Positions 6,346 to 49,411 of a stretch of 49,698 nucleotides of DNA are shown here, piece after piece. Each line of letters starts with the position of its first letter. Positions within the stretch are counted from its first letter, which is position 1. The stretch covers positions 1 through 49,698 of the forward strand of contig DYQT01000002.1 in assembly GCA_020719165.1 (NCBI GenBank), written 5' to 3'. Below the pieces are notes generated by a model that saw nothing but the letters and a program-made list of their open reading frames with translations, was not told the DNA's origin and ran no database searches. Source of the DNA: Draconibacterium orientale. GTDB taxonomy: Bacteria; Bacteroidota; Bacteroidia; Bacteroidales; FEN-979. The position numbers were made by a program, and so were the translations under genes.

Positions 6346-6381
6346 CGAAATTATTTCAGTACCTGGCTATTTTAAAGGACA
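6346..6381 (-). promoter_or_regulatory. Phage promoter-class element P1 (TGTCCTTTAA-N18-TAATTTCG)
   Basis: Exact 10-mer at 6372-6381 (minus sense), 18-nt spacer, and a -7-like box at 6346-6353 that ends 4 nt before ATG 6341. Confidence 0.6.
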
Positions 6382-6383
6382 CA

Positions 6384-9300
6384 TTATCTGGTTACCGATT
6401 TCTCGATGGCGGCCACGGTATCGTTGGTATATTTCATGGTATCATACGAGATATTGGCCTCGATGGGGTTTTGCATGGCTCTTGTATGTGCCCGCATTGC
6501 CTCAAGAGTTTCTTTGTCAAAAGCCACGGTTACCGGGCCAGCGACATCGCGCTGCGCTCTCGCATCGGGGTAAAGCCCGCCGGCACGTTGCGGCACCGAC
6601 ATAATTGACTGGATCAGGTCGGGCCTGAACTTCATCAGATTTTCGGTATGCTTGGGGTTGAGAATAATCTCTTTGCCGGTTTCGGCAAAAAGGGTTGGAG
6701 TGCCATACACACCCGAAGGCGGCTGTTCGACGAACGGAACCCCTTGATATTGTTTGTTGTCATCCTGTCCAAGAACATCGTAGCGGCCCATGGCGGCCTG
6801 GTGTGATTTGCGGATGGCAGCGTAGCGGCCTTTGGCGGCTTCGCTTACCGGGGTTGAAGAGATGGTGGCAATTTGGAAAGCGCCAAGTCCGGCGGCAAGT
6901 ACTGCCATGATAAGACCCACAATGAATGGGGTCATTGAAAGTGCCGATGTGACTGAAAGTGCAGTATTAATAATAGCCTGGGTTAATGATAACGTTTTCT
7001 GGCGTTTTGCTTGCTGTACTTGAACAGCTTTTTTCTTCTGTTCCAATTCGGCGTCGAGCTTGCTAATGCCTGAATCATATTGTTTTTGGGAAATAAGCTT
7101 GGCATCAAGTTGCCGTTTCAGGTTTTTCTTTTTCTCATCATTTACGCGAGAATCTCTGGCTAATTGTGCATTTTCCCGATCAGTCATAAGCTGATCAATG
7201 GCCATGATGCCATCCATCACAGGATTAACATAATCATTTATAAATGCATTTGCTTTACCTGCAAATTGAGATATGCCATTTTCTTCAGGAGCAGCATTAG
7301 GATCCTCGTTACTAACACTCGTCATCATTTCGGGTGGTTGATCCTTTTTATACAGCCCTTTATCTGTATCTACACCTTTTGATTTTAGTTTTTTGATATC
7401 CCCACTTTCAGCTTCCTGTTGATCAAGGATGCTTTGAGTTGCCTCGTCAAGCGCGGCCTTATAATTTTTGATTCGCTGAATTTTCTCTGCAATTATTTTT
7501 GCCTGTGCAGGATCGTTTAAAACTTCCTTTTGCAGGAGAGACATTAACTCATTGATCTGTTCGTTTAATTTTTCATATTGCGATTTTAGTTTGCTGGTTT
7601 TATCAGCTTTCCCTGGATCAGAATCGTTAAATTTTGAAAGTTCAATGTTGGTTTGTTTAATTTTTCCCTGGATTCGCTTAAAATCCTCCGAACCTGCAAT
7701 GGTATTACGCAGTGCCGTTTGATACTTGGTTAACTTTTCGGTGAGGGCTTCCTGAGTTTTGGCGCTAATCATATTGGCAATTTGTTCGGCTTTGGTAATT
7801 TCGACCAACTGACTTTTTGTTGACCGTAAATTCTTCAAGTTTTCTTCAATGCTTTTAATTCCATCATTCAATTGACTGGCTGCTTCTGCTCCATTTTGGG
7901 CAGCATCTACAGCGTTATAAGCCATGGCCACTCCTGGTTGAAAACCACTTGACACCAGGTTAACTCCCTTTTGCCATAAGGTAGGTTTTGAATTATCTCC
8001 CTGAACCTTTTGTTGGCGTGCTTTCATAAGCACTAATTCAGTTTCAGCCAGCTTAATATTTTTATCAATCTTATCGTCAAGGTCAAGCTTTTCTTGTTGC
8101 GAAAGCCTGTTAAGTATTCTGATTTGATCGTTAAGATATTGGTAATTGTCAGATAATGTTTTATTGACAACATTCATGCGTTCAATTGTGCCAGCCTTAA
8201 TCTTTTCATTTCTGACTGCCTCAGAATTATATTTATCATACGCCTTAATGGCTGCAACTAAGGCCGTTATTCCGATGATTAATAACCCAATTGGATTTGC
8301 TTTAATGGCGGCATTCCATAGATATTGGGCTGTAGTTGCCAATTTTGTTGCTACGGTTCCATTTCCTTTCCAAATGATGGATAATTGTTCCTGGGCAATC
8401 ATAAACTGGAGTGCAATTGCATCTTTGGCCTTTAACAAAATCCCTTCCTTCATCAACAGGTTATTCATCAATGAAACCTGCATTGACCTTGTTTTTGCGG
8501 CAATCCAAACCGCTGTTACACCGGCAATGGCGATTAATGAAATCTTGTATTTTTCGATAATAAGCGGAAGGTCCTTAATCCAATTCACCAGCGAAACCAC
8601 ATGGTAAACCTGGTTCTTAAAAAACTCAGTGACACCGGGCATGGTGATCAAGTTGTAAAAATCTTTTTGAAGTTTTGCAAGGATTGCTCCTAGTGTAGCA
8701 TTTTTGATATTGAATTCGCTGGTTATTGATCCGGTACCCTGCAACGAGCTTCCGGCAAGCGCAACCTTTTCGGCCAGCATACCGGTGTTGGTTGCGAGTT
8801 TGGCAAATATTTCAGAAGCTCCAACCCCCGAAATTTCGAGTTCTTTGATGATCCCGGCCAGGTCGGTAGCGCTTTGACCACCTCTTTTTGAGCCTTCAAC
8901 CACCTTCAGGAAGGCGCCATACAAATCTTTATTCACTAATTCAGTGAATTCCTTTACCGGCATTCCGGCAACACCAGCAAAAGCTTTGGTGTTGGTGGTC
9001 ATTTTCTGCATGACCTTTACCACGGCTGTTCCACCACGTTCAGAATTGACATTTAACTCCTGCAGGGTGGCCGACAATCCAAGTACTTCATCAGATGTTA
9101 ACCCTAGCGGGATCCCGATGCCGCCGATCCGGCTGACGAAATCTGACATCACCGGTCCGGTGGCAAAACCTGCTGCACCCAGGGTATTGATGGCGTTACC
9201 TACGCGCATCATGTCATCGGCTACATTGGCGGTTTTGGTGTCGGTGAGTACATTTCTTAGCATCCCCATTTGTTTAGCCACTTCTTCGGCACCACCGGTG

Positions 9301-10028
9301 AATTCATCTCCCAGGGCAACATTGAGTTTGTCAACCGATTCGACAAAAGCAAAAACATCCTCTTTTGCCATTCCGAGCTGGCCGGCCACAACAGCCATCT
9401 GGCGCAGATCCTGCCGACTGGTGCGAGTATCAATTTTGCCAAGCTGCTTATTGAGGTTCTGAACCTCAAGTGCTGTCATTCCCGTCGATTTACGGATGTT
9501 GGCCAATGAGTCATCCAGCTCACCCTGGGCGGTGATCATTTCTTTGATGGAAAATGCAAGGCCTGAAAACGCAGCGATACCGGCGGTTACAACTGCAAAG
9601 TACCGGTTAAAACCATCGGCCAGCTTTCCGAATGACATACCGGTGTTCTTTGCACCAATTTGCACCTCACTCAGGCGTTTGCTGACAGCATTAAATTCTT
9701 TTTCGAGTTTAATACGCTGTTCTGATCCGGGAACTTTGCGAGCCAGTTCATTTCTAAGCTGCGCCTGCAATGACCGGAGTTCTTTTATTGACAACGACTG
9801 AAGGCCTGCTTCCTGGCGAACCTTCTTCATCTGAATAAGGTAATCGTCGTAAACCTTTTTAGCATCACGATATTCCTGGGTATTCTTTTTCTTTTCAGTA
9901 ACCAGGCGCGAAAGCTCAGCTTCGTAGCCGGTCATTACCTTTTCCATTTCAATCAGTGATCGTTTTGCCTGATCATTGTTGATGAAGATCGAAAACCTGT
10001 AATCTGAGATATTTGTTTTTCCTGCCAT
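6384..10028 (-). CDS. Tail tape measure protein
   Basis: 1214 aa with long coiled-coil stretches and internal hydrophobic helices. The N-terminal third resembles the conserved core of TP901-type tape measures (LANIRKSTGMT...MAVVAGQLGM...VESVDKLNVALGDEFTGGAEEVAKQMG). Confidence 0.9.
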   Translation of the reverse strand: MAGKTNISDYRFSIFINNDQAKRSLIEMEKVMTGYEAELSRLVTEKKKNTQEYRDAKKVYDDYLIQMKKVRQEAGLQSLSIKELRSLQAQLRNELARKVPGSEQRIKLEKEFNAVSKRLSEVQIGAKNTGMSFGKLADGFNRYFAVVTAGIAAFSGLAFSIKEMITAQGELDDSLANIRKSTGMTALEVQNLNKQLGKIDTRTSRQDLRQMAVVAGQLGMAKEDVFAFVESVDKLNVALGDEFTGGAEEVAKQMGMLRNVLTDTKTANVADDMMRVGNAINTLGAAGFATGPVMSDFVSRIGGIGIPLGLTSDEVLGLSATLQELNVNSERGGTAVVKVMQKMTTNTKAFAGVAGMPVKEFTELVNKDLYGAFLKVVEGSKRGGQSATDLAGIIKELEISGVGASEIFAKLATNTGMLAEKVALAGSSLQGTGSITSEFNIKNATLGAILAKLQKDFYNLITMPGVTEFFKNQVYHVVSLVNWIKDLPLIIEKYKISLIAIAGVTAVWIAAKTRSMQVSLMNNLLMKEGILLKAKDAIALQFMIAQEQLSIIWKGNGTVATKLATTAQYLWNAAIKANPIGLLIIGITALVAAIKAYDKYNSEAVRNEKIKAGTIERMNVVNKTLSDNYQYLNDQIRILNRLSQQEKLDLDDKIDKNIKLAETELVLMKARQQKVQGDNSKPTLWQKGVNLVSSGFQPGVAMAYNAVDAAQNGAEAASQLNDGIKSIEENLKNLRSTKSQLVEITKAEQIANMISAKTQEALTEKLTKYQTALRNTIAGSEDFKRIQGKIKQTNIELSKFNDSDPGKADKTSKLKSQYEKLNEQINELMSLLQKEVLNDPAQAKIIAEKIQRIKNYKAALDEATQSILDQQEAESGDIKKLKSKGVDTDKGLYKKDQPPEMMTSVSNEDPNAAPEENGISQFAGKANAFINDYVNPVMDGIMAIDQLMTDRENAQLARDSRVNDEKKKNLKRQLDAKLISQKQYDSGISKLDAELEQKKKAVQVQQAKRQKTLSLTQAIINTALSVTSALSMTPFIVGLIMAVLAAGLGAFQIATISSTPVSEAAKGRYAAIRKSHQAAMGRYDVLGQDDNKQYQGVPFVEQPPSGVYGTPTLFAETGKEIILNPKHTENLMKFRPDLIQSIMSVPQRAGGLYPDARAQRDVAGPVTVAFDKETLEAMRAHTRAMQNPIEANISYDTMKYTNDTVAAIEKSVTR

Positions 10029-10030
10029 GG

Positions 10031-10549
10031 TTATCGTATGTAAATACGGGTTGAATTGATTACTGCGGTGTGGGTATAACTGAGAATAATATCTTCGAGT
10101 TCTGCCATGTATGATTGAACAACCGGGTTAAACCAGGGTTTTGGCCTACGGTTGAATCCCAATGATTTTGATAATTTTACAACAATATCCCCGCTCATCA
10201 CATAACCACGCCCAACGCCTTTATGAATGAATATCCCTTCGCGGGCAAAGGAAAAACCAAGCCGGTATATTTCACCGAACTCATAATAATAGGTATTGCG
10301 GATGCTTCTCGCCAGCCGGGATCCTCCAATTCCATGGGCAGCTATGGATCCTGGCATGGCCGCGTTTACCTTCGCGCCCCAAACCATCAGTTTTTGATTA
10401 AACTCTTCGGCGGCTTCCGGTGCCCATTGCGTTCGTTCCCAACGCTGGGTTTTTCCCATCTCTTCAATGCTAACATCAAAAGGACCATTGCTGATCCTGG
10501 TTCGCCTGTGATCTGATGATTGTTCTAAAACCTTCTTCCAGAGACCCAT
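10031..10549 (-). CDS. Conserved neck/tail-completion-like protein (HK97 gp10-like, tentative); paralogue at 48768..49289
   Basis: The ORF track gives 10031..10633. I prefer Met at 10549 (MGLWKK...) because the upstream extension only translates a conserved terminator/promoter DNA block. It sits directly upstream of the tape measure. Confidence 0.7.
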   Translation of the reverse strand: MGLWKKVLEQSSDHRRTRISNGPFDVSIEEMGKTQRWERTQWAPEAAEEFNQKLMVWGAKVNAAMPGSIAAHGIGGSRLARSIRNTYYYEFGEIYRLGFSFAREGIFIHKGVGRGYVMSGDIVVKLSKSLGFNRRPKPWFNPVVQSYMAELEDIILSYTHTAVINSTRIYIR

Positions 10550-10564
10550 GTTAGAAATTTTCGA

Positions 10565-10600
10565 CAATGATACCAAGGGCAGAATGGAAATTAAAGGACA
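10565..10600 (-). promoter_or_regulatory. Phage promoter-class element P2 (TGTCCTTTAA-N18-TATCATTG)
   Basis: 10-mer at 10591-10600, spacer of exactly 18 nt, box at 10565-10572, and 15 nt to ATG 10549. Confidence 0.6.
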
Positions 10601-10601
10601 T

Positions 10602-10623
10602 AAAAAAACCCGCCGAAGCGGGT
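10602..10623 (-). terminator. Intrinsic terminator (ACCCGC-UUCG-GCGGGU plus U7) on the minus strand
   Basis: 6-bp GC stem with a UUCG loop at 10608-10623, followed on the minus strand by T7 (10602-10608). Confidence 0.7.
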
Positions 10624-12308: not shown

Positions 12309-12326
12309 TGTGGGTACCTCCTAATG

Positions 12327-12396
12327 GAAAAATCCCAAGTCTTGCTCGGTTCGAGGAACCGTCCGACCCTCGCGGGTGCGGAAGACTTGGGATTTC
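12327..12396 (-). promoter_or_regulatory. Structured 5' leader: three-way junction closed by a 14-bp stem followed by U5, just before the SD
   Basis: AAATCCCAAGTCTT (12330-12343) pairs with AAGACTTGGGATTT (12382-12395). Two inner hairpins read on the minus strand as ACCC-GCGA-GGGU (GNRA loop) and CGGUUC-CUC-GAACCG. UUUUU then the AGGAGG SD follow. Confidence 0.6.
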
Positions 12397-12442
12397 TCCT
12401 ATATAGAAAGTGAAAGCTCATTGTAACCTCGATTTAGCACTG

Positions 12443-12472
12443 CAAATATACAATGCTAAACGACAATGTCAA
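12443..12472 (-). promoter_or_regulatory. Host-type promoter (TTGACA-N16-TATATTTG) for the four-gene operon
   Basis: On the minus strand, TTGACA lies at 12467-12472 and TATATTTG (the TAnnTTTG -7 consensus) at 12443-12450. Confidence 0.5.
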
Positions 12473-13669: not shown

Positions 13670-13705
13670 CAAACTTAAAAACAGGGGGATGGAATTTAAA
13701 GGACA
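13670..13705 (-). promoter_or_regulatory. Phage promoter-class element P3 (TGTCCTTTAA-N18-TAAGTTTG)
   Basis: 10-mer at 13696-13705, 18-nt spacer, and a perfect TAnnTTTG box at 13670-13677, upstream of ATG 13634. Confidence 0.6.
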
Positions 13706-17423: not shown

Positions 17424-18478
17424 TACAGTCTCACGAATTTATCAGTAACATCAAAACGTTCGGTAAAGTCAACCGGGTCAATGGTGGTACCTGCAGCAGC
17501 AGCCTCCAGTTTTGCCAGGTGATCCTGTAGTTTGCGAAGCTCGCGCAAACCATCCTTTTCAAGTGATGCAGATATTTCGTTCCGGTCGATCTTGCTGGCC
17601 GCTGATTTTGTTTTAATCACGTTGATAGTCATATTTGAGAATATGCCATCCGGAAGTACTTCAGCGGTTAATCGTTTCGCGGCAACGCTCAGGGTAAGCA
17701 GCGCCAGGGGCTGGCGGGCCTTATCAAGGATGATCAGATTATCCGCTGAAATGTCATCATCTTCAATGGCTGCCTGCAACTCAGCATATTTCTCAGCGGT
17801 GAAACATGATTTTATTTCATTGTCCTGCACCCGGCGCATGATCGGGAGCAGGGAGATAAACGTTAACCGGGATCCTCCGATCATAAACACCTTCTGAAAT
17901 TCATCCACGGTATTGATAAACAGTTCCCGCGTTGCCAATAACGCTGCTGATGTTTTCCATGGAAGTAATGGAGTGTAGCCGACTGGTGGAAATGTATCTT
18001 TTGGTGGAACAATTTCGACTTGATCATCGATATGTTCATCCAGAAATTCGAGGAGGATATCAGTACCATCGTTGGCCAGCCGTAAAAGGTTTTCATTGTC
18101 CTTTTCGATTTGCCACTCGAAGGCGGGTTTTTCCTGTTCCGAAACAAATATCTGGCGGCCTTTGTCAGAATGTGTCAAGTCGGAACTTGGCACATACCGG
18201 CGATAAGCATGAACGGCCACCGGGTATTGGATACACCGAACCAATTCATCCAGAATTGGATATTCGGGATGATCTTCATCTGCTTCAGCCAGCAGATAGT
18301 TCTCGGAATCGTAGTGATCCTGTGCAACCTGAAAAACCTCTTTGCCAATGATCTTCTTGATATCCCGCTCGGCAAAACCAATGTACGATTTCAGATTGTC
18401 GAAATTAATCGACTTGTAAATGAAGCCTATCAAGGCTTTCAGTTCAGATGAACCGGCAGAATCTTTATTAAACAGCAT
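17423..18478 (-). CDS. Hypothetical virion-module protein
   Basis: 351-aa ORF downstream of the portal-like gene. Confidence 0.6.
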   Translation of the reverse strand: MLFNKDSAGSSELKALIGFIYKSINFDNLKSYIGFAERDIKKIIGKEVFQVAQDHYDSENYLLAEADEDHPEYPILDELVRCIQYPVAVHAYRRYVPSSDLTHSDKGRQIFVSEQEKPAFEWQIEKDNENLLRLANDGTDILLEFLDEHIDDQVEIVPPKDTFPPVGYTPLLPWKTSAALLATRELFINTVDEFQKVFMIGGSRLTFISLLPIMRRVQDNEIKSCFTAEKYAELQAAIEDDDISADNLIILDKARQPLALLTLSVAAKRLTAEVLPDGIFSNMTINVIKTKSAASKIDRNEISASLEKDGLRELRKLQDHLAKLEAAAAGTTIDPVDFTERFDVTDKFVRL

Positions 18479-19835
18479 TTTTCAGGCGATCTTTAGGGTT
18501 CGTTTTTTCTTCGGTCATTACGATATCATGATAAAAGCCCAGGCGAAGGTCAGTTCCCGGGAAGTTAGCCCTGATGGCCATGTTGATATCCTTCATCACA
18601 ATACTTTCGGGGATATCGACACCGGTTGCCAGGTAAAGCTTGAAGGCATAGAGCTGCTCCGATCCGGATGGCAGGTTACCATCTTTGCTCAGGTTACTCA
18701 GCGCCGGATGGAGACCTATCCCTGAGGTGATCATGAACATCGACTGGTTGCTGATGGCGATTTGTGCATCAATAAAATCGCCAACCTTCTGATCCATTGG
18801 GGTTATTTTCCAGCCCACGTACTCGTTTGCCTGCTCGTCAAACAATGAATCGGTGGTGATGTACTTTCCCACCTTATCACCGCCGGAAAGGGCTAATGAA
18901 ACCGCTTTGAAAGTGTCATCTTTTAATTTATCAAAAGCTTTTTCGGTAAATGGAACATTCTGAGCAACACAATCCTCTTCCATTTTCATCTTCATCGATG
19001 CCCAATAGAGTGCAGGTACCTCAATGTGGTACTTGATGGCCATGGAATTGTCGTTGAAGTTGGTGAGCAACTTCGGAATCGAAGATCCCAGTTTGATCCA
19101 GCTGATCGTACCATGGAACGGCGAACGTGAATACTCCAAATCGAGCGCAAAAGCGTAGAGATTGGAATAGCGCATGGCCACCGGGGAGGCAAACGGGTTT
19201 TCAGGATCAAATACCGGGTACCTGCGAAGTCCATTCTTCCAGGGTTGCCGGTAATCGCCAACGATGATGTTTCTGATCTGGTTGTTATCATCCGGCCATT
19301 CAAGCCGTGAAAACATGCCCGAAACATGTTCCAGCTTCGCCACGGCGGCTTTCCCGCCAATCCGGGGGCCACGATTGCGGTAAAACTTGGTAAAATGACC
19401 ATTCAATGTGCGGAATTCGATGCAGGCTCTGAGCAAATAGTCTTCATAATCCCATGAATCGAGCCATGCCTGAATAGCAGGATCTTCATCCCAATACTTT
19501 TCCCTGCGGCCATTGTTGAATTTCACCCGGTACAAAGCCGGTCCCTGTCCGTAAAGAAGCTGCGCCTGTTTGTTGAGAACCTCCGGAGTGAGGTTATTCT
19601 CATCAAGAATGGTGCGAATTTCATCCGGATAATTGTTTTCGCTGCCATGAGCAACGATTTGAAAGTCGCCGATACGTGTTGGCAGCAGTTGACGGGCATT
19701 GGAATAGAACGGGAGAACCGAAGTCTGTGCTACGTTCGATGATCCTACCACATCGAAGAGGTAGCACCCGGCTTTGGTAACGGAAATAACCTTGTTTTCC
19801 GCTTTTAATAGTTGAACATCGGTATCTTCAGCCAT
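18468..19835 (-). CDS. Portal-like protein (tentative)
   Basis: 455 aa. The size and position (first large virion gene after the island that follows terL) fit a portal. No diagnostic motif verified. Confidence 0.45.
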   Translation of the reverse strand: MAEDTDVQLLKAENKVISVTKAGCYLFDVVGSSNVAQTSVLPFYSNARQLLPTRIGDFQIVAHGSENNYPDEIRTILDENNLTPEVLNKQAQLLYGQGPALYRVKFNNGRREKYWDEDPAIQAWLDSWDYEDYLLRACIEFRTLNGHFTKFYRNRGPRIGGKAAVAKLEHVSGMFSRLEWPDDNNQIRNIIVGDYRQPWKNGLRRYPVFDPENPFASPVAMRYSNLYAFALDLEYSRSPFHGTISWIKLGSSIPKLLTNFNDNSMAIKYHIEVPALYWASMKMKMEEDCVAQNVPFTEKAFDKLKDDTFKAVSLALSGGDKVGKYITTDSLFDEQANEYVGWKITPMDQKVGDFIDAQIAISNQSMFMITSGIGLHPALSNLSKDGNLPSGSEQLYAFKLYLATGVDIPESIVMKDINMAIRANFPGTDLRLGFYHDIVMTEEKTNPKDRLKNAV

Positions 19836-20137: not shown

Positions 20138-20173
20138 CAAACTTACCGAGCGAGCAGGAAAATTTAAAGGACA
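20138..20173 (-). promoter_or_regulatory. Phage promoter-class element P4 (TGTCCTTTAA-N18-TAAGTTTG)
   Basis: 10-mer at 20164-20173, 18-nt spacer, a perfect TAnnTTTG at 20138-20145, then CCTC and ATG 20133. Confidence 0.65.
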
Positions 20174-24699: not shown

Positions 24700-24754
24700 A
24701 GGTTATGTACTAATGTGACCAGGTTGTGTACTTAGGCCAGGGAGGTTGTGTACT
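24700..24754. repeat. Three phased 12-bp direct repeats AGGTT(A/G)TGTACT
   Basis: Copies at 24700-24711, 24721-24732 and 24743-24754, spaced 21-22 bp apart. The last abuts or overlaps the terL stop codon. Confidence 0.8.
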
Positions 24755-26472
24755 TATTTCACACCAATGGATCCGAAGGTAAGCCCTGCCTTTTGTTTTG
24801 TAATTGCGATCCACTTAGGGCGACACATCAGGTATTTGAATGCATCTGTGAAGTTTGTTGATTCCATTGCCAGGCGTGACGATGGTAACTTGTCACCCTT
24901 CTTAACCTTTTGAATTTCATTCTTGGCGCTCTTGGTTACAGGGGTAACCTCCAATTGATTCTTTAACTCACGACATTCAAACATATCGATCAGAAGCTTT
25001 GGCAATCGTTTGTCCTTCTCTCCCATCATTATGTTCATCAGATTGAATTCATCACTATGGGATATGTTACCCTGGCCAATGTTCATCAATTGGACAATCC
25101 AACCAGTACGCACGCCTGCTTTGGTGAATTCGATATCATGTTTGAGTTGTGTGGCAAAGTCACGGCCACTCTTTCGGTATTGGTTGGCCGACCGGTCATG
25201 GTAAAGATGGAACACCTTCTTCTTATGTGGCTCAAAGAACGTGATGAACTTATCAGCCAGCTCACGGATCCACTCGGGGGTTAACGTGTAGATTCCTTTA
25301 AGGATACGATAGTTGTTTCCTTGCTCCTGCCCTATTACCAGGCTCATCATGTTGCCTGCATCGAACCCACCCTCCAGTATCTGATCATGGCCTATGTGTC
25401 TTAACCCTGTTGATGTCTGCACCAGGTTCGACTTCAGGCTGAACTGATCATAGTAATCGTAGTTGTACCCATCACGATAGAAATGCTTATCAGCCAGGGC
25501 GCCATAGAACCGTGAACTAACTTCCAGCGTTTTGCGCATGGACAGTACTGCTGTTTTGAATTCTTCAAAGTCAAGCGTATCCAGCAGATTCTTAAAATAT
25601 TTCAGGGTAAGTATGTCAGCATTGGCAAATGATGATACGATATAAAAGAATGTGCTGTCCTGCCTGATCTTGCCAAGGCGCTCCATCCAGCGCTGGCGAT
25701 TCTTTTTTATGTTCTCAATCTTTTTGGAATCTTCTCCCTTCTTGATGGCAAAAAAGATTTCCAGGTTTATTTCGTTCAGGATGAACGCCGCCTTGATGAT
25801 CCGAGTGATCTGCTGCTTATCCATCTTCTTTTCCATGCGCAACATCCAATCGCTTTCACCAACCGCAGGGTCAGGCATGTCACTGCAGAAGGTTTGACCC
25901 ATAAAGTAATGGCTATGCCCGTAAAGATTGTAATCGCCTCTCAGGGTAGGGAAAAGCTTATTGAGCTTCTCTTCCTGCAGATACTTTGATTCATCCCCGA
26001 AGTGATGAACAACCGATATCCCAGCATTGGCGCTGGGCCGGTCCAGGGAGGTCAGGAAGAATTTACAACCATTGAATGTAGTGATGGTGTGTTTGTATGA
26101 AAAGGTTTTGATCAGCGGTTTCGGCCAGTGATCGGGTGGTTCCTGGTCAACAACGAAATGATAGTTCTCAATAAATCCCTGGCGGCTCTCCCATCCAAGG
26201 ATTATGGCCGGAATGATGTTGGTCATCAGGTTTACATAGGTATCCGATACAAATGCAAATGATGCACGAGGCATGTCATAGATGATATCGATTGATCTCT
26301 TTGCCAGGACATCGGTACTTTTGGCAGTTCCACGGCCACCATACAGATAGAGGTTTGTTGGCTTGATCAGGTCAATCAGTGTCGCTATCCAGTTGGAGTA
26401 ACGAATATCTGCTTCCTCAGAGGTTATCTTATTCTTGGACATTTTCGGCCATTTCAAATATGATATCTTCAA
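24754..26472 (-). CDS. terL: Terminase large subunit
   Basis: 572 aa with Walker A YGGRGTAKS near the N-terminus and an acidic Walker-B-like HHFGDESKY. Size and architecture are typical. Confidence 0.8.
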   Translation of the reverse strand: MKISYLKWPKMSKNKITSEEADIRYSNWIATLIDLIKPTNLYLYGGRGTAKSTDVLAKRSIDIIYDMPRASFAFVSDTYVNLMTNIIPAIILGWESRQGFIENYHFVVDQEPPDHWPKPLIKTFSYKHTITTFNGCKFFLTSLDRPSANAGISVVHHFGDESKYLQEEKLNKLFPTLRGDYNLYGHSHYFMGQTFCSDMPDPAVGESDWMLRMEKKMDKQQITRIIKAAFILNEINLEIFFAIKKGEDSKKIENIKKNRQRWMERLGKIRQDSTFFYIVSSFANADILTLKYFKNLLDTLDFEEFKTAVLSMRKTLEVSSRFYGALADKHFYRDGYNYDYYDQFSLKSNLVQTSTGLRHIGHDQILEGGFDAGNMMSLVIGQEQGNNYRILKGIYTLTPEWIRELADKFITFFEPHKKKVFHLYHDRSANQYRKSGRDFATQLKHDIEFTKAGVRTGWIVQLMNIGQGNISHSDEFNLMNIMMGEKDKRLPKLLIDMFECRELKNQLEVTPVTKSAKNEIQKVKKGDKLPSSRLAMESTNFTDAFKYLMCRPKWIAITKQKAGLTFGSIGVK

Positions 26473-29765: not shown

Positions 29766-31922
29766 TTATCCGCGTGCGATTTCGTAGAATTTCTCGTTCG
29801 TTGCTTTTTCAAGCGTGATGTAGGTTCCTGCCAGCAGGGTCATAGCCGCGGTGAGAACGAAGTTCCCGGCATTGGCCATGGTTACTGCATTGGTGTCGCT
29901 TCCGCCATAGATGGTGTAAACCGTGTCGGTTACAGCATTGTCAAAGGTGGTGAAGGCCGTTGGTACGGTATTAACAACCGTGATGAACGAAGTTCCGGCA
30001 GCCACATCAGGCGTGGTATCATCGGCAGTCAAGGCAATTGCGGTGCTGGTAACAGCTTCGCGCTTGAGTTCGATGAATTTACCGTCAGACCTTTTCTTCA
30101 GGTAGATTTTATCACCAACAGCCGGTGTCCAGGCAGCGGTGATCAGTGAGAAGTTGCCGGCGGCGGCAATGGTGACGGCGTTGGTTGCGTTTCCGCATTT
30201 CAGGATTACTTCCTGTCCAACAGCACAATCATCAATACCCGTGATGGCGGTAGCAGCCGAGTTAGCCACGCTGATCAGGCTGGTGTGGTTGAGCACACTT
30301 GGCGTTGTGTCGTTTGCATCCATGGATACAAAGAAATCGGAGGGTTCGTCAACATCGTTGCAGAAGATCATCTGGGTAGAGTAATCGCCAGGCATTGCTG
30401 CAGCAGAAGCGTATTTACGTCCAACCATGTAAGCCCAAACGGATTCTCTCCAGTTTGACCATACTTTCAATCTCCAGTCCTGCTGCTCCATGTTGAAATT
30501 CAACATTTCGCCAGATTTATCCTCGAAGAGGGCGATATTACCTTCAACGGTCCAGATGAGCCGTTTGCTGGGGGCCATGCCCTGAATGGCAACGATTTTC
30601 ACGTTAGGATATTCCTTCACGTATTCAATGCCACCTTTATAGTCCTGATTTAACCCGTAAAGGGTTTCGAGGTTGGTGTTGTAATCACTCAGGGTATCAG
30701 TGCTCATGTACAGAACCAAACGTCCACTGTCGCGGAGAACTTCCGGGATCAGCTTGGTTCCATTCTTCACATGCGATGCGATGGTGGAAGGGGTCCACTC
30801 TCCGAGGTTGAAAGCCTGCATTTTGAAAGCAGCGAGCTGGATCTTGATAAACTTCAGGATACCATTCGAAGCCTGCAGGGAGGTACCGGCCACATTGGCG
30901 GTGGGGTTCTTACGAACGCCACGAACACGGCGCTGTTCCTGCTCATTCTTGAGTTTTTTGCCGGTTTCAACCAGAATATACTCAATGAATGACCATTTCA
31001 TTGGCGATGATCCTTCGCGGTTCAGGTAACCGATCCAGCTTTTTTCAAGCTCTTTCAGTTGTTTGAACTCATGAGCGAACATTACATCGTACATGGTGAG
31101 GGTTTCCGGCTCAAACTTGTAGCCACCTTTAACCACATTTTCGAAGGTACTTCCCAGGGAAGTGCTGTCTGCCTGAGAGAAATCATCGGTAAGGAACATG
31201 TTCACCAACACGGCCTGATCCTGGTACCCACTTTCGAGCGGGAAGATGGCGGTGAGTGATGGCAGGCTCATCAAAAATGACTGAACCCGGTCCTGTTTGC
31301 GGATACGGTAATATTCGCCCAGGTCAGATCCCAATGAGGAATAGTCGAGCGATGAAGCTGCACGGGGCGAAGACATTTCGATTCCGTGGCGGGCGGCGAT
31401 CGATGCATAAGCCCTGCGGTTGTAGCCGTGGGCATCGTCGATGGCAAAGAATGGCTGGTTTTCACCATACAGGTGCGTATCCTGCCCGGATGGCACCCAG
31501 TTTTTGGGATTGTTTTTCATAACAGGATTTGGGTCCGGATCTGCTTCCGGTTTTTTGGTGAGTGTGGCAATGATGCCATCTTTCTCGGTGATGATATCCG
31601 CGAGCTTATCTTTCGCAGCTTTTTCAGCAGTGAGTTCGCGTTGAGCCTGCTGTTTTTCTGCCTCGATTTTCAGGTTTTCTTTTACTAATGCCTCCAACTT
31701 GATATGCAATGCAGCAAACATGTCCTGAACTTCTTTTTCGTCCGTGGCATTACCCTCCGGATCATTGGACAGCGCAGAAACGAACTTCTTAGTGAATTCC
31801 TCACCGAGATTTCCCTTCAGCTTTGTCAATTGTTCCTCGGTAAGCGATACTTTACCATCCGGGTCTTTGGCAAAAGCCTGAAGACCGAGGAATGCCAGGA
31901 CGGTAATCATGAATTGTTTCAT
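29766..31922 (-). CDS. Major capsid-like protein with an N-terminal coiled-coil (scaffold-like) region and two C-terminal ~85-aa repeat domains
   Basis: 718 aa. Translationally coupled (4-nt overlap) to the S49 protease gene, the classic protease-then-capsid order. The fold could not be verified. Confidence 0.6.
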   Translation of the reverse strand: MKQFMITVLAFLGLQAFAKDPDGKVSLTEEQLTKLKGNLGEEFTKKFVSALSNDPEGNATDEKEVQDMFAALHIKLEALVKENLKIEAEKQQAQRELTAEKAAKDKLADIITEKDGIIATLTKKPEADPDPNPVMKNNPKNWVPSGQDTHLYGENQPFFAIDDAHGYNRRAYASIAARHGIEMSSPRAASSLDYSSLGSDLGEYYRIRKQDRVQSFLMSLPSLTAIFPLESGYQDQAVLVNMFLTDDFSQADSTSLGSTFENVVKGGYKFEPETLTMYDVMFAHEFKQLKELEKSWIGYLNREGSSPMKWSFIEYILVETGKKLKNEQEQRRVRGVRKNPTANVAGTSLQASNGILKFIKIQLAAFKMQAFNLGEWTPSTIASHVKNGTKLIPEVLRDSGRLVLYMSTDTLSDYNTNLETLYGLNQDYKGGIEYVKEYPNVKIVAIQGMAPSKRLIWTVEGNIALFEDKSGEMLNFNMEQQDWRLKVWSNWRESVWAYMVGRKYASAAAMPGDYSTQMIFCNDVDEPSDFFVSMDANDTTPSVLNHTSLISVANSAATAITGIDDCAVGQEVILKCGNATNAVTIAAAGNFSLITAAWTPAVGDKIYLKKRSDGKFIELKREAVTSTAIALTADDTTPDVAAGTSFITVVNTVPTAFTTFDNAVTDTVYTIYGGSDTNAVTMANAGNFVLTAAMTLLAGTYITLEKATNEKFYEIARG

Positions 31923-32812
31923 AGGTTGTTTTTAAAATTTATGGATTTCGATTGATTAATAAGTTTATTGGCAAGGCCTAATTCGTAGACTTTGATAAGC
32001 GCATTTTGCATGGTGGTGATCTCGTTGATCAACCCAAATGACTGGGCCTGTGCGGCGAAATAATCAGCACCGGTGAAAACCTCAGATTCAGCCGGTATGT
32101 TCAGATTATTCTGAATAGCCTGGTGAAAAATGCCATTGACAAAATCAACCCGGTCAAGGATCAGTTTTGTTTCGCCTGTTTCTTTGAAAGCCCTCCAAAC
32201 TTCATCCTTCCGGGTGGCCAGGGTGGCGTATATATCGGTGATCTTGATTCCGATCTTTTCCAGCAATACGGCATAATCCTCAATGGATGTTTTGGTACCG
32301 ATGCTGCCGATGATGTCCATTGGCGAAGTGGCAATACGGTAATTGGTTGCCGAGATCACCCACATGGCAGCGGAAGCGGCCATGCCCATCACCACCGAAA
32401 CGGAAGGTTTTGATAATCCTTTAATGGTGTTGGCCAGAACGTCAATCTGGGAAACCATCCCGCCGGGGGAGTTTACTACAAATAAGATTGAGTTGATGCG
32501 TGGATTTTCTTCGGCCTCATGGATCAGTTTCATAAGATAAACACTGTCCCATGAGCAAATCACACCATCAATAGGAATAACAGCCACAGAATTGTCAGCG
32601 ATATCCGGATCATAGAGGTGGCACCATTTTACAGTTTCTATTTTCTTTTCCGGATTAGACCATCCAAAGACATAAGGCTTTGGCCCATCTGTCGGTTTGG
32701 TTAGGATATCCTGTCCTTTAATGAAGGCGATGAGCACCGGTAAATAAGAAATGGCCGTATCCTGACGGATCAGCCATTGGGCACCAAGAATGGAGAATAT
32801 GCGATTTAACAT
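31919..32812 (-). CDS. S49-family (SppA/ClpP-like) prohead protease
   Basis: ILFVVNSPGGMVSQ...VVMGMAASAAMWVISATNYRIATSPMDIIGSIGT matches the S49 serine-peptidase core. Confidence 0.8.
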   Translation of the reverse strand: MLNRIFSILGAQWLIRQDTAISYLPVLIAFIKGQDILTKPTDGPKPYVFGWSNPEKKIETVKWCHLYDPDIADNSVAVIPIDGVICSWDSVYLMKLIHEAEENPRINSILFVVNSPGGMVSQIDVLANTIKGLSKPSVSVVMGMAASAAMWVISATNYRIATSPMDIIGSIGTKTSIEDYAVLLEKIGIKITDIYATLATRKDEVWRAFKETGETKLILDRVDFVNGIFHQAIQNNLNIPAESEVFTGADYFAAQAQSFGLINEITTMQNALIKVYELGLANKLINQSKSINFKNNL

Positions 32813-32832: not shown

Positions 32833-32868
32833 CAATATTATATAGGTATGTACCGGTTGTAAAGGACT
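32833..32868 (-). promoter_or_regulatory. Phage promoter-class element P5, variant (AGTCCTTTAC-N18-TAATATTG)
   Basis: Motif at 32859-32868, spacer of exactly 18 nt, box at 32833-32840, and 20 nt to ATG 32812. Confidence 0.5.
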
Positions 32869-32878
32869 GAAAAAGGCC

Positions 32879-33334
32879 CTATGTGGTGAGCCAGCAAGCC
32901 CGGTAAATGGCCATGCACGAAAATTCAAGGGTTGATCCGGATCCTTTGGCCGAGAACTGCAATAGCTGTGTAAGCTTCGCACCATTGCCGATATCGCCCA
33001 TTAATTTGGCGGTTGAATCGTGGAATTGAATTTTTACCAGGCTTGGCCGGTTGAGAATTGCATCGAGCGAAGTGAGATTACCATCTCCATCACCAGGGAA
33101 AAGAAACCTCAGTGATTGTTCAATCAGCTCTCCGGCTTCTGCGTCTTTTGGTTTCTCGATAAACTCTGCACTACCGGGAGTAAGGTAAATCTCCTGCCAT
33201 GCCTTTCCGGTTTCGAAGGTAACCGACCGGTGGAACCGGTCGGATGAATTTGCGATCGCATCGATATCGGTAAGTGGTGCAAAATATATTTTGCACACCG
33301 TTGGGATCAAAGTTGTGTTTTTTGGGATGGTCAT
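32879..33334 (-). CDS. Hypothetical protein
   Basis: 151-aa ORF upstream of the protease gene. Confidence 0.6.
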   Translation of the reverse strand: MTIPKNTTLIPTVCKIYFAPLTDIDAIANSSDRFHRSVTFETGKAWQEIYLTPGSAEFIEKPKDAEAGELIEQSLRFLFPGDGDGNLTSLDAILNRPSLVKIQFHDSTAKLMGDIGNGAKLTQLLQFSAKGSGSTLEFSCMAIYRACWLTT

Positions 33335-33381: not shown

Positions 33382-33924
33382 TTACTCCGAATGTGACACA
33401 TGTGAAACCTGTGAAACCGTTGGAACTATCGGACTAACAAGGCCTTTAACTGACGTATTTATTCTGTTTCTAAATAACCTACGTTTGTACCTGAGATTCA
33501 CGTATCTATAGAAGTCTTTTTGTAAAAAATCCCAACAATCTTGTGAAAGATCGTATTTTTCTATAAAAATTTCCAACGCATCCTGTTTTTCGATGCCATT
33601 TACGATAAGTTGAGACACTTCTGAGCGAAATGTTATTTTGAAAAATTTCCGAAGTTCTTTAACGAAAATTTTTTGTTTTAATGGTGACAGATAATTGTTG
33701 TACACAACGTTTTTTGTTTCAAAATAAGGCAGCTGGATCCACAGCGTTGCCGGACCGTAATCGGGCTGTTGAAAATCCAATGGAGGTTTATCCAAAAAAA
33801 CGTCCAGTAGATTCAGGAAGTGTGAATTCTTTGGGAAATTGATCGGCAAATTGCCCCACAACGAAACGGCGAATCTCACCAGGTAAGCATCGCATTTAAC
33901 TCGAATAATGATGTCAGATGGCAT
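33382..33924 (-). CDS. Hypothetical protein (basic C-terminal half)
   Basis: 180-aa ORF. Promoter element P6 ends 4 nt before its ATG. Confidence 0.6.
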   Translation of the reverse strand: MPSDIIIRVKCDAYLVRFAVSLWGNLPINFPKNSHFLNLLDVFLDKPPLDFQQPDYGPATLWIQLPYFETKNVVYNNYLSPLKQKIFVKELRKFFKITFRSEVSQLIVNGIEKQDALEIFIEKYDLSQDCWDFLQKDFYRYVNLRYKRRLFRNRINTSVKGLVSPIVPTVSQVSHVSHSE

Positions 33925-33928: not shown

Positions 33929-33964
33929 TAAAGTTATTTGGGTTAGTACTGGGATTAAAGGTCT
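33929..33964 (-). promoter_or_regulatory. Phage promoter-class element P6, variant (AGACCTTTAA-N18-TAACTTTA)
   Basis: Motif at 33955-33964, 18-nt spacer, box at 33929-33936, then CTCT and ATG 33924. Confidence 0.5.
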
Positions 33965-38670: not shown

Positions 38671-41600
38671 TCAGAATGGCAGGTCATTTTGAAGATTTTT
38701 GGGTTGCGACAAATTGTCAGACATGTTCATGTTCAATGATGTTTGATCTGCAATTTTTATTCTTTGCAGGTCAATGCCCATTGCCTCGATGACTTTATAA
38801 TCCAGGGCAACGCAACTGGTATTGCGCTCTCCTTTTTCGATGATTCTTTGATTTGTGCCGGTGATAGGATCAGATCTCCATGATTCGGTCTGGTATTCGA
38901 ACCGGTGTGATTTAATCTGGCCGATGTATGAAGGATGATCTTTAAGATACGCACGAAGGGAAGCCAGTTTTAAACTCTCGGTGTTATGCATTTTCTGATA
39001 ACTGACAATGATATCGTTGATGATGATCCAAAGAATTTTTTTAGGTTCGCCATTCCAGTACAATTCATCTGTTTCAGTTTTGGATATCTGGACAGTTACT
39101 CTTGTTTCCAGTGAAATATCGAATTCCCTACCGGATAGAATCCTTCCCTGCGCATATTCCATTCCGATAAAATTGAAAAAAAGCGCCAGCCGGTTGCTGG
39201 TACTCAGCTCTTCGCTTTGCCTGGTAATTTGTCGTTTGGCATCCTCATAGAATTCGGAAAATTTGAAAGGTAAAGGCAAATCCTTTACAAAATCCTCCCA
39301 TAGTTTGGACACGGCAATAAACAGGCTCACCGTATTGATTATACGGGTTTGATAGGTGCCTCCTTCAGCCTGAATATCTTTCTTTACCTGCTTTTGGGCA
39401 TCGCGCATATAGGCTGCAAAGTGTTTATGCACGATCGGTTTTCTGCGGATGATCTCCAATACTATATTGCTTAGTCCATCACGCTCCCGGTCCTTTAAAT
39501 CTGTGTACATAAGTACCTCCTCGTTGGTCCAATCATCTTTTTTGGGAACATGTTTTAGCACCACCCGGTTACCCAGGGCGCCATCGTCGCGCTCAGGCCC
39601 TTCCTGACCCAGTAAAACAAGACTGCAGAGAATTTTAGAAACATCAATGTCCTTGCTGGTGGCATCTTTGCGCTTTTGCTTTCCTTCGCCATCATATACA
39701 GAAGCTTTCAGCCCCTGGAACTTGATATCTGATATCTGGTAATCATTGTACTCTTCGGTGATCACCGGGATGTCGCAGAAGCGTTCCATGGTGGTAAAAA
39801 ATGCAGCATCGGTACCAGAGTTCAGGTTGAACAATGGTGCGCCATACATGAATGGAGCGCGGATGCTTTCGGCAATTCTTGATTTACCAGACTCCGTTGG
39901 GCCAATGAAAAACAGAGCCGTAAAAAATCGTTCAATGGGGAATATGGTGCTGCGGTTTGCAGAAAGGATGGTGAAAAGTAATGCCCACATGCCGTTGTTG
40001 TTGTACTGATAAACCTTATGCATCAGGGTTGACCATTCGAGCCATGAGGTGCGCTGATCAGGCTTGTACACCAGGAACCGGTCATATTGGTAACGGTCGC
40101 TGTCGGAGCGACGATCCTTGTAAATTTTGCTGAACGCCGGTGAGTAATAGGTGACATTTTTGAACTTTACCAGACCAAGTTCATCAACTGATGTGAAATG
40201 GTTATCGGCAATGATGCCATTTGAAAAAGCGAAAAACTGTTCCTGTTGCCATCCGAAGGTGGAGAATTCCCAGCATTTAGGGAATTGCAGGGCATTACTT
40301 TCCATTATCTTCTCATGATGGTACTGCTTGCCATTGCTGAAGATGTAACCACCAACATTCCACAGGAACTTCTTGAATTGTGATAACTCGACCTGATCTG
40401 AACTTTTGAATTCAACATATTCGGCGGTGTTCAACTCGCTGTGGAATAGTTCAACGATTCTTTTATTCTTATTAGGATCGTCATCGTACACCTGAAACAG
40501 CGGTTCGAGGTAAAAGTTTCCCACCTTTACCAGGGTATTATCCAGGGTACGGAAAACATAAAATATTTTATTGCCGGTTTTGTTCTGTGCCGGGAAGAAA
40601 CCATACCGCTGAAAAAACTGCTGATCAACGTAATCTGGCAGGTGGGCAATGTCGAAAACAAACTGCTGATCATCGATCACTACCTGTTCCTGCTGCTGAA
40701 CAGCCAGGTTCTTACGCTTCTCTACAAATGGGCGCAAAACCTTTGAAAAGGATGCGGCTGGCAGGTTGAACTTCTTGGCAATTTCATTGGTTTTGATATG
40801 GATGATGGTATTGTCGAGCTTTGACAAAAACTCGGCAACCATTTCCACAAACTTCTTGGATCGCTTGGTGTCGGGCTGACGCATTAAACGATAGGCCAGT
40901 CCGCGCACGTAGAAGTCGAGAAAGTCAATGTAAACTGCAGCATCAGGATCATCGTTATCATCAACGGCAGCAATTTCACGCACTTCAACCCTGAAGCCCT
41001 GTTCTGTGAGCAACCGGCCGGCTTCGGTAAGCGGTGATTCAACATCATTGTCATCTACCACATGCGTGAGCCCTTCCACTTTGACATTTTTTGTCAACTT
41101 AGCCAGGCGAAAAATATCATCTTTTTTGAGTAATCCATCCGGAAGGCTGATGGTGTTTTCCTGACCTTCGGCGTGACGGGCAACCACAGCGCCGGGAGAT
41201 GCCAGCAATATGGCAAACCCTTTTTCCCTGATCGATTCCTCAGAAGCATCGAGGCCAAAGAATCCCGCTTCTTGGTGCTCAATAGCCGGAAGATGTTTCT
41301 TCACGGTTTTTACCAGGTCATCACGGTTTACATCCAGTTTACGGGAGATGTCGCTCAGCAGGTACCCGCGTGTTTCTTCGTCGGGCATGAGCGAAATTTG
41401 CGAAACAAGTTCTTTGACCAGGCGTGCCTTCTGCAGCGGATCCTGATCAAGCTGTTCTTTCACCATGTCGATGCGGAATGACACGATATCCTTCCGGTTA
41501 TCTTCGATGAAGTTTGCCAGGGTGGCGGCGCCATATTTGCGCACATACGAATCCGGGTCTTCATCCCCGGGAAGTACTACCAGGTAAACATCCATCCCCA

Positions 41601-45829: not shown

Positions 45830-46390
45830 TTAAAGCAAATTATTTTGGTAGGCGTAAGCAGTGATCCCGGCTTTGGAATGGCAGCCAATTTTCTTTTTAA
45901 TGTTAGTGCTGTGTACTGCCATGGTATTAAGAGCAATCCCAAGCATGTCGGAGATCTGTTTATCGAGCAGATCACGGGCAATTAACTTTATGATTTTAAT
46001 TTCAGTTGGAGTAATCTTTCCATTTTTAACCAGTAACGGCTGGCAAATGATTCCTTCAAACTTGCATATGCCACGTTTCTCACAGTTAACATGCTCATGA
46101 ATGATAACACCATCGGCAGTGAGATCAGCCTTGTTATCGAAGTTTCCGAAATTGCAGATTGCCCATTGCTTGAGTTGATAAATGGGATTTGTAATTCCAA
46201 GTTGATTTTCAATGGCATTGAGAGCCCTTGGATGGGCATCAAGATCATCACGCAGTATATTCAGTTGGAGAACATCCAGTTCTTCAAATGAATGTTTGCC
46301 TTGGTTATTCATGAAAAAAACATTGTCATTTTCTTCATAGAATTCATAATTCCCTTCAAGGGTACCTGCTGGGGCGTGGGATGTTTGCAT
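45830..46390 (-). CDS. LuxR/GerE-type HTH transcription regulator
   Basis: C-terminal ITPTEIKIIKLIARDLLDKQISDMLGIALNTMAVHSTNIKKKIG fits the GerE HTH. The N-terminal domain has a Cys cluster (CEKRGICKFEGIIC). Confidence 0.65.
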   Translation of the reverse strand: MQTSHAPAGTLEGNYEFYEENDNVFFMNNQGKHSFEELDVLQLNILRDDLDAHPRALNAIENQLGITNPIYQLKQWAICNFGNFDNKADLTADGVIIHEHVNCEKRGICKFEGIICQPLLVKNGKITPTEIKIIKLIARDLLDKQISDMLGIALNTMAVHSTNIKKKIGCHSKAGITAYAYQNNLL

Positions 46391-47217: not shown

Positions 47218-47369
47218 AATTGATTTATACTATTTCTTATAAAGTGTTTATGTGTTATATTTGTATTAAATGTGTGGCAAATATAAGATAGAAATATCAT
47301 TTGTCAACTGTTTTTATCATATATGTATGATATTTATATCTGGTCTAATTATAATAGGGGATTAATAAT
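47218..47369. promoter_or_regulatory. AT-rich switch region with opposed TATATTTG promoters and ATGATA/TATCAT half-site repeats
   Basis: The minus-strand promoter is TTGACA (47302-47307)-N16-TATATTTG (47278-47285). A plus-strand TATATTTG lies at 47256-47263. The inverted repeat is ATCATA-TATG-TATGAT, with further TATCAT/ATGATA copies. Confidence 0.55.
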
Positions 47370-47777: not shown

Positions 47778-47863
47778 TAAAGTGACCCCCTCACCCCCAT
47801 ATCATAGGCTTAACTATTAAACTGAAAACAACTGAAAAGGTTGCAGGATTAAACAATAAATTA

Positions 47864-49340: not shown

Positions 49341-49411
49341 TAAAAAAACCCGCCGGTCAGGGCAGGTTAATTTTATTAAAAACCGGCATAAGGTCAATTA
49401 ATTCCTTAAGA

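Follow-up and report, generated by a model that had tools for sequence, protein, structure and literature searches.

The DNA analyzed here is a stretch of 49,698 nucleotides (nt) from an assembly of Draconibacterium orientale (contig DYQT01000002.1, positions 1 to 49,698 of the forward strand), referred to as a whole as the window. It is the genome of a temperate Bacteroidales siphophage, and nearly all of its transcription is carried by the minus strand. The genes of the virion, replication and regulation are collected in Table 1, together with the element under study, a bipartite motif that recurs at eight sites: a 10-mer of the type (T/A)G(T/A)CCTTTA(A/C), a spacer of 18 nt (N18), and an 8-mer resembling the -7 box TAnnTTTG of Bacteroidota. 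Close relatives of this phage encode an integrase, closely related prophage fragments are held by Bacteroidales genomes, and the hosts of all cultured relatives belong to the Bacteroidota. Relatives were sought by protein search, since a 10-kb piece of the window had no counterpart among GenBank phages by megablast; homologs of the portal protein bear this annotation in Bacteroides phage BT-TP2 and Cellulophaga phage Ingeline. No tRNA was found by a scan of the window.

Table 1. Coordinates of the bipartite sites and of other features in the window. Distances run from the 8-mer to the start codon; ORF, open reading frame; aa, amino acids.
Feature	Position	Strand	10-mer	Remarks
TGTCCTTTAA-N18-TAATTTCG	6346-6381	minus	6372-6381	4 nt to ATG 6341, predicted leaderless; serves post-tape-measure tail genes
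TGTCCTTTAA-N18-TATCATTG	10565-10600	minus	10591-10600	15 nt to ATG 10549; serves 10031-10549 and tape measure
TGTCCTTTAA-N18-TAAGTTTG	13670-13705	minus	13696-13705	35 nt to ATG 13634; 70-aa MKKIITLL... secreted-looking protein
TGTCCTTTAA-N18-TAAGTTTG	20138-20173	minus	20164-20173	4 nt to ATG 20133, predicted leaderless; serves 96-aa gene and portal block
Variant AGTCCTTTAC-N18-TAATATTG	32833-32868	minus	32859-32868	20 nt to ATG 32812; serves protease and capsid-like genes
Weaker variant AGACCTTTAA-N18-TAACTTTA	33929-33964	minus	33955-33964	4 nt to ATG 33924, predicted leaderless; serves ORF 33382-33924
TGTCCTTTAA-N18-TTCATTTG	48411-48446	minus	48437-48446	15 nt to ATG 48395, 49-aa ORF
TGTCCTTTAA-N18-TAATATTG	49305-49340	minus	49331-49340	15 nt to ATG 49289; gene 48768-49289
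Seventh copy of TGTCCTTTAA		plus	32712-32721	Within protease gene, antisense; no -7 box at N18; outside the class
Intrinsic terminator hairpin	10608-10623	minus		T-run abuts 10-mer of 10565-10600
Terminator-like hairpin and T-run	32875-32892	minus		Directly upstream of 32833-32868
Intrinsic terminator	49347-49368	minus		T-run abuts 10-mer of 49305-49340
Early-type promoter TTGACA-N16-TATATTTG	12443-12472	minus
Early-type promoter TTGACA-N16-TATATTTG	47278-47307
Tape-measure protein	6384-10028	minus
Portal	18468-19835	minus		31-37% identity over ~86-88% of length to Bacteroides, Flavobacterium and Cellulophaga phage portals
Terminase large subunit	24754-26472
Capsid-like protein, 718 aa	29766-31922	minus		Homolog of annotated major capsid of Porphyromonas phages
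Head maturation protease	31919-32812	minus
ORF 33382-33924	33382-33924	minus		180-aa basic protein, unannotated family; boundary of replication genes and late region
DnaG-type primase	38671-42630
GerE/LuxR-type regulator	45830-46390	minus		Early operon
P22 antirepressor-like protein	46393-46941

The exact 10-mer TGTCCTTTAA was found seven times in the window, six times on the minus strand and once on the plus strand, against 0.09 expected, and seven copies were reached in none of 100 dinucleotide shuffles. Two variant 10-mers, AGTCCTTTAC and AGACCTTTAA, were detected on the minus strand. At all eight minus-strand sites the spacer between the 10-mer and the -7-type 8-mer is exactly 18 nt, and all eight are intergenic and aimed at the downstream gene. 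Two of the 8-mers are perfect TAnnTTTG, and six carry one mismatch. An earlier note on this DNA, made by inspection of the sequence, had described the six minus-strand copies, the two variants, the eight 8-mers, the 18-nt spacing, the co-orientation with downstream genes and the distances to the start codons; recounting gave the same values for all of these, but the note had missed the seventh copy of the 10-mer.

The pattern CCTTTA-N19-T[AT]nn[AT]T[TC][GA] matched eight times on the minus strand of the window and not once on the plus strand. When sites were scored by matches to TGTCCTTTAA-N18-TAnnTTTG with a cut-off of at least 13/16, eight passed on the minus strand, whereas 100 Markov-1 randomizations gave 0.29 on average and never more than 2; the enrichment claimed for the motif thus held against randomized controls. 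With spacers of 16, 17, 19 or 20 nt, nothing above 13/16 was obtained on the minus strand. The 10-mer alone, with up to two mismatches allowed, was not enriched (60 found, 61 expected), indicating that the signal resides in the bipartite arrangement. A scan of the window for the sigma-70 consensus was uninformative (47 sites, 45 expected).

The earlier note had placed the motif in front of the virion operons. Two of the eight sites, those with 10-mers at 48437 and 49331, are not ahead of the main virion blocks. None of the eight is located inside the replication/early region (about 34.0-48.4 kb), which is headed by a promoter of the type TTGACA-N16-TATATTTG; both promoters of this type, which the note had contrasted with the motif, were present.

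Conservation was then examined at homologous positions of related phages, and both the motif and its 18-nt spacing were retained. For the portal block, six orthologous promoters were compared, from the window and relatives with a portal of about 70% identity (L121, L122, L060, L047, L179). Mean pairwise identity was 97% for the 10-mer and 92% for the box, against 32% for the 18-nt spacer and 34% for the upstream 20 nt, which is near chance. The same pattern of conserved boxes and diverged spacers was observed for the promoters before and after the tape measure and before the protease. Site 6346-6381, which falls in the 42-nt gap after the tape-measure gene, has orthologs at L121 20153, L122 11914 and L230 4955, all with both boxes and N18 kept and with different spacers. 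Orthologs were also found for site 10565-10600 (L121 16216, L122 7677, L230 646) and site 13670-13705 (L121 15520, L235). The counterpart of site 32833-32868 at position 19567 of L123, a relative found via its 62%-identical GerE protein, reads AGTCCTTTAT-N18-TAATATTG, and further counterparts lie ahead of the protease in BT-TP2 (6522), two Porphyromonas phages (11008 and 9996) and Flavobacterium phage laban6-1 (30995).

The promoter-like site of ORF 33382-33924 (33929-33964) corresponds to TGACCTTTAT-N18-TAAATTTG at L123 18461-18496. Between the window and L123, a shared internal block, cccagtactaacc, is shifted by 2 nt while the spacer still measures 18 nt, indicating that the length of the spacer, and not its sequence, is under selection. 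Both phages carry GACC in place of GTCC at this site; the weaker variant is therefore itself conserved, which would fit a graded or autoregulatory expression of ORF 33382-33924.

A scan of IMG/VR with the strict pattern gave at least 120 contigs. In these loci 62 further copies of GTCCTTTA, unmatched by the search pattern, carry a box at the same offset, with T (64%) A (58%) n n T (50%) T (59%) T (56%) G (43%) at +27 to +34; no conserved position was found upstream of -41 around these 62 copies. For Flavobacterium, positions -12 to -5 are given for the sigma-A box TAnnTTTG, and leaderless transcripts make up only 5.5% of mRNAs (PMC9723704). By analogy, +1 was taken as 5 nt after the box. The 10-mer then spans -40 to -31, and a gap of 4 nt puts the A of ATG at +1. 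The distance from the box to the first ATG opening an ORF of at least 40 codons was determined for 103 non-redundant instances. It was 3-6 nt in 18 instances, 16-30 nt in 42 and 7-15 nt in none, and the ATG was found at the predicted +1 in 18 of 67 scorable cases. This enrichment of the 4-nt gap would be hard to explain unless transcription starts there, and leaderless late genes are predicted to be frequent in the lineage.

Three of the eight sites in the window are butted against the terminator of the preceding unit. This arrangement, as well as the finding of other phages with a terminator hairpin as the spacer or with the 10-mer in a hairpin loop, is what one might see if the 10-mer were no promoter element but a protein-binding or RNA-level signal, with -7-like boxes nearby by coincidence; it could then act as an operator, in antitermination, in processing or within a terminator. 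We regard this view as very improbable. Most sites are without a hairpin, no Rfam family was matched in a scan of the whole window, and eight dispersed sites misfit antitermination of the single-site Q/qut type, whereas the rigid 18-nt spacing, the strict co-orientation and, for roughly one case in four, an ATG that coincides with the expected +1 are as predicted for promoters. On these points, the alternatives of an operator, an RNA element and a site for Q-type antitermination were each rejected.

As a host control, the same pattern was scanned in 185,579 bacterial and archaeal genomes; the at least 120 matches obtained gauge clustering and context, not enrichment. The matches listed were mostly singletons in unrelated AT-rich genomes: 84 of the 120 listed were without a downstream ORF, and about 10 were prophages related to the window phage. 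Two or more co-oriented copies were present in 42 of 120 listed viral loci, against 5 of 120 listed genome loci, and at least two of these five are prophages of the window phage lineage. Together with the conservation described above, these findings indicate that the eight sites are very probably late-gene promoters of the window phage.

The complete genomes of cultured relatives were scanned by pattern and de novo, the latter for 7-mers recurring at a fixed offset from -7-like boxes. The phage-specific promoter class of the earlier note was confirmed as a class of phages, but it is not unique to the window phage, being shared by a deep lineage of Bacteroidota siphophages. Its conserved core is (T/A)GTCCTTT, which BT-TP2, the Porphyromonas phages and Ingeline carry with the offset of the window and at the gene boundaries where the window has it. 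In BT-TP2, the form TGTCCTTT[TA][TC]-N18-box precedes the protease, an internal head-region gene, the tape measure and a post-tape-measure gene, the last at 4 nt as a leaderless case. Porphyromonas phages 030a and 021a carry (A/T)GTCCTTT(A/G/T)(G/C) before the protease, portal block, tape measure and post-tape-measure gene. Five sites of the form TGTCCTTTTA-N18-TAnn(A/T)TTG, three of them 4-6 nt from ATG, were found in Cellulophaga phage Ingeline_1 (Duneviridae), and GTCCTTTG and TGTCCTTTAT in the human-gut contigs L250 and L251. In laban6-1, with TGTCACAAC as the upstream element, (CA)TGTCACAA(C/A/T)-N18-box is located before the holin, protease, head gene, portal block and tape measure, and on that strand TGTCACAA is found five times, always as part of such a site. 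F. psychrophilum phage 6H carries CATGTCTTAAA-N17/18-box at four sites on equivalent gene boundaries, its element TGTCTTAAA having four occurrences.

In place of CCTTT, the elements of laban6-1 and 6H contain ACAAC or TTAAA and nothing resembling TTTG, with offset and gene boundaries unchanged. The shared denominator across all variants is TGTC at about -40 to -37, followed by 5-6 phage-specific bases, and each phage holds its own 9-10-mer almost invariant. The two Flavobacterium phages use different elements, and phages of Bacteroidia and Flavobacteriia hosts use the same one. As the variant does not track host taxonomy, the determinant of specificity travels with the phage and not with the host. 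This distribution is the main argument that the reader of the upstream element is probably encoded by the phage.

When compared with the Bacteroidota sigma-A promoter (-33 TTTG, -7 TAnnTTTG), the class has the same type of box, at the same position of -12 to -5 by analogy (PMC9723704), and the TTT of the 10-mer (-35 to -33) coincides in position with the host -33 TTTG, TTTN being separated from the box by the canonical 19 nt. The G of TTTG is, however, replaced by A at all eight window sites and by T in BT-TP2 and Ingeline, and no TTT exists in laban6-1 and 6H; among the phages compared, TTTG is found in L250 only. With the -33 G missing, the class is not a canonical Bacteroidota sigma-A promoter. 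It differs further in the addition of an invariant TGTCC extension, in being clustered in phage DNA only, in a spacer that is rigid at 18 nt and not variable, and in a several-fold enrichment of leaderless genes.

These likenesses could also mean that the sites are strong promoters for the host sigma-A holoenzyme alone, with TGTCC as an extended -33 or UP-like booster of the sub-optimal TTTA, with no phage factor, and with timing that follows from terminators, read-through or repressor release. The host-type -7 boxes and the TTT exactly at the host position agree with such use, as does L250, where the TTTG in GTCCTTTG stands at the canonical 19-nt spacing; so does the lack of an assignable DNA-binding domain in the best candidate reader described below. 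We consider it unlikely nevertheless. Among the matches listed, those in host genomes are chance singletons or prophages and are unclustered; laban6-1 and 6H keep the offset and gene boundaries without any TTTG-like sequence, while the Cellulophaga phage keeps GTCCTTT; the 9-10-mer is nearly invariant within each phage and its variant does not follow the host; and the early promoters of the window use TTGACA instead.

Two proteins had been put forward in the earlier note as factors for these promoters, the LuxR-type protein 45830-46390 and the product of ORF 33382-33924. The former is a bona fide helix-turn-helix regulator (Pfam GerE, E = 2.7e-10; NarL-like fold; PHROG 10300, transcription regulation), the gene of which sits early in the early operon. 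Full-length homologs are encoded at the same early position in laban6-1 (gp54), 6H (gp61) and Ingeline (gp18), the early operon of the Duneviridae relatives thus carrying such a gene as well, and their recognition helices differ between phages with different motifs. That this protein is the activator binding to the 10-mer is nonetheless quite unlikely. No homolog was detected in BT-TP2 and Porphyromonas phages 030a and 021a by hmmsearch --max against six-frame translations, yet all three use GTCCTTT, and the regulator is ranked low on this account. LuxR/GerE proteins normally bind dyad-symmetric sites as dimers, whereas the upstream element is asymmetric, with no inverted copy near any site and nothing conserved upstream. 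Covariation of recognition helix and motif was considered and found not convincing, because the helix of Ingeline is unlike that of the window and both phages use GTCCTTT. A disguised extracytoplasmic function (ECF) sigma factor was also rejected, as the C-terminal domain matches the DNA-binding domains of NarL, LiaR and GerE and the N-terminal domain is not sigma-like. This N-terminal domain of about 120 aa, which gave no match to PDB structures, contains invariant C79, C103, C109 and C116 and a nearly invariant H100, and the cysteines are largely kept in the Flavobacterium homologs gp54 and gp61. The set suggests a metal- or redox-sensing site.

ORF 33382-33924 fits better. Its family comprises 20 close clusters and, by a full HMMER scan, 348 representatives at 50% identity. 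The family is basic (median pI 9.3), and its C-terminal tail carries positive charge. All eight comparison genomes covering that region have a syntenic homolog. With a broad profile, exactly one member was found per complete genome, always followed, directly or after one further gene, by the first late-type promoter; these members are BT-TP2 gp8, Porphyromonas 10089-10577 and 9063-9536, L251, laban6-1 gp42, 6H gp40 and Ingeline gp41. When every window protein was used for iterative search, the families common to essentially all genomes were structural and packaging proteins, the primase and the 33382-33924 family. Searches of PHROG, Pfam and PDB sequences gave no annotation for this ORF. Its AlphaFold2 model, a confident one (predicted local distance difference test score, pLDDT, 83; predicted template modeling score, pTM, 0.74), had no fold match among PDB structures (best E = 1.2), and the sole match in BFVD was an uncharacterized protein of a Polaribacter phage. 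The family is thus the best candidate for the reader of the upstream element, an assignment that we make tentatively.

Several points weigh against this interpretation. ORF 33382-33924 is a core syntenic gene, so that its co-occurrence with the motif is inseparable from common descent, and portal and terminase co-occur with the motif equally well. No DNA-binding or sigma-like domain was recognizable in its product by Pfam, PHROG, PDB sequence and fold comparison. The three Duneviridae members align at an hhalign probability of 88% (E = 2.8e-6), but only over the C-terminal 60 residues. The Ingeline copy is as divergent as those of laban6-1 and 6H despite the use of GTCCTTT, leaving no visible covariation of protein and motif. 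No match to Sigma70_r2 or Sigma70_r4 was obtained, even among candidates at E up to 1, for the about 30 of about 70 window proteins screened against Pfam, a coverage at which a divergent sigma factor or other regulator could be missed. The perfect -33 TTTG of L250 implies that the host sigma alone might suffice in that phage. In addition, we infer promoter function and late timing from the DNA sequence.

These observations altogether can be accommodated in one scheme, to which we assign a probability of about 0.65 as a whole. In it, the eight sites would serve the window phage, a temperate Bacteroidales siphophage, as late promoters for virion and lysis-region genes. The -7 box T(A/T)nn(T/A)T(T/C)(G/A), positioned near -12 to -5, would be read by the host RNA polymerase carrying the primary sigma factor, and upstream of this box the asymmetric 9-10 bp element (T/A)G(T/A)CCTTTA(A/C) would stand at about -40 to -31, with the TGTCC extension ahead of TTT. 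Host polymerase alone may use such promoters poorly. A phage protein made from the early operon would then recognize TGTCC(TTT) and recruit or re-target the polymerase, by which the structural operons would be switched on. Three of the eight promoters put the ATG at the predicted +1 and would give leaderless mRNAs. As the most likely reader, the scheme takes the protein encoded by ORF 33382-33924, which is basic and of unmatched fold and whose gene immediately precedes the late region; the weaker GACC promoter ahead of this gene may provide positive feedback. The distinct class proposed in the earlier note, in which a host-type -7 box is combined with a special module in the -33 region in front of virion genes, probably with a phage factor, was supported by every computational test applied.

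The design appears to work with a logic like that of T4 middle promoters. In the latter, a MotA box at -30 is combined with the host -10 element, and the host sigma is appropriated by MotA and AsiA. Both classes retain a downstream element of host type, and an asymmetric box of about 9 bp, specific to the phage and set at a fixed distance, stands in for the -35 element. The protein that reads the MotA box is a phage product of an earlier stage of infection, which may likewise hold for the reader of the window class. Unlike in T4, the box of the window is centered near -36 and not -30, and the host sigma is of the Bacteroidota type. Pfam and PHROG gave no match to MotA or AsiA among the window proteins screened, and the model of the candidate reader gave none in the PDB; a remodeling of sigma region 4 in the window phage would be pure conjecture.

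More loosely, the design also resembles the cascades by which temperate phages activate their late genes. The early-to-late order recalls lambda Q, P2 Ogr, Mu C/Mor and RinA/ArpU/LtrC, as do the small size and basic character of the candidate reader and its place at the early/late boundary. In contrast to lambda Q, which acts by antitermination at a single late promoter, the window carries eight or more dispersed promoters, three of them right after terminators, and no dyad-symmetric site is present at about -55 as for Ogr and Mu C. The candidate reader has no sequence or fold similarity to the Q, Ogr, Mor and RinA-type families. As no homolog or fold of MotA, AsiA, Q, Ogr, Mor or RinA was found among the proteins screened, the promoter class of the window is not a member of those families.

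Some sites show additional features. The spacer itself forms a GC-rich hairpin in L004, L017, L027, L034, L048, L056, L039, L090, L112, L116 and L251 (7563), as in TGTCCTTTAA-TAGCCGCCTTCGGGCGGC-TATTTTTG, where the -7 box doubles as the T-run of the terminator and a terminator is thus nested in a promoter. In Porphyromonas phages (L249 28226, L252 27440), the 10-mer lies in a hairpin loop that is followed by a T-run. L096, a viral contig of 25% GC, contains on its minus strand three near-identical full promoters with the same spacer at 2566, 3430 and 4291, about 860 nt apart, which suggests a gene cassette repeated in tandem, each copy being headed by a late-type promoter of its own.

In the window, promoter 48411-48446 is directed antisense into two plus-strand genes (47370-48268), one with a winged-helix domain, which probably belong to the lysogeny module; late transcription may therefore yield antisense RNA against them. 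Gene 48768-49289, located at the right end of the window and past the putative lysogeny module, is a paralog of 10031-10549 (both on the minus strand, 68% identical over 151 aa) and thus not a distinct kind of gene. Both paralogs are preceded by an intrinsic terminator, the T-run of which abuts the TGTCCTTTAA promoter. Gene 48768-49289 may have arisen by duplication of a late gene; alternatively, the right end may be part of a neighboring related element.

The early-type promoter at 12443-12472 is followed on the minus strand by a leader of about 130 nt with a long hairpin (about 12335-12390) and a T-run just before ATG 12308. This leader (12310-12472), for which no Rfam match was found, could be an attenuator or regulatory leader of an accessory-gene island between late operons. 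A reverse transcriptase is encoded by the relatives L123 and L124 (17064-18023) and by BT-TP2 (L245; 40959-42254), which reportedly contains a diversity-generating retroelement; none was noticed in the window, where no systematic search for it was made.

To our knowledge, almost nothing is known on the timing of gene expression in temperate phages of Bacteroidota, which include abundant Bacteroides prophages of the human gut and prophages of the periodontal pathogen Porphyromonas gingivalis. Full-text searches of the searchable literature, in which the BT-TP2 paper was included, gave no prior description of the motif, nor of late promoters in phages of Bacteroides or Bacteroidetes or in Duneviridae. 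Our findings support a conserved late-promoter class, with a rigid layout of -40 to -31, 18 nt and -12 to -5, in a phylum-wide lineage of temperate Bacteroidota siphophages. With its signature, thousands of genomes of uncultured phages could be annotated for late regulons and transcription units, and the class would supply compact, probably orthogonal promoter parts of about 36 bp, some leaderless and some with a built-in terminator, for synthetic biology of Bacteroides. It also places one or two genes on a shortlist for the output switch between lysis and lysogeny. The 33382-33924 family may, as a possibility that we hold with reserve, represent a new class of transcription factor re-targeting sigma-A polymerase to TGTC-type elements at -40 to -31. 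Such a class would replace the contact between region 4 and -33 or act as a sigma-like subunit, and would define a late regulon rich in leaderless mRNAs in Duneviridae, BT-TP2-like phages and P. gingivalis prophages. If the reader is indeed this fold-orphan family, it would represent a new mechanism for redirecting the unusual sigma-A polymerase of Bacteroidota.

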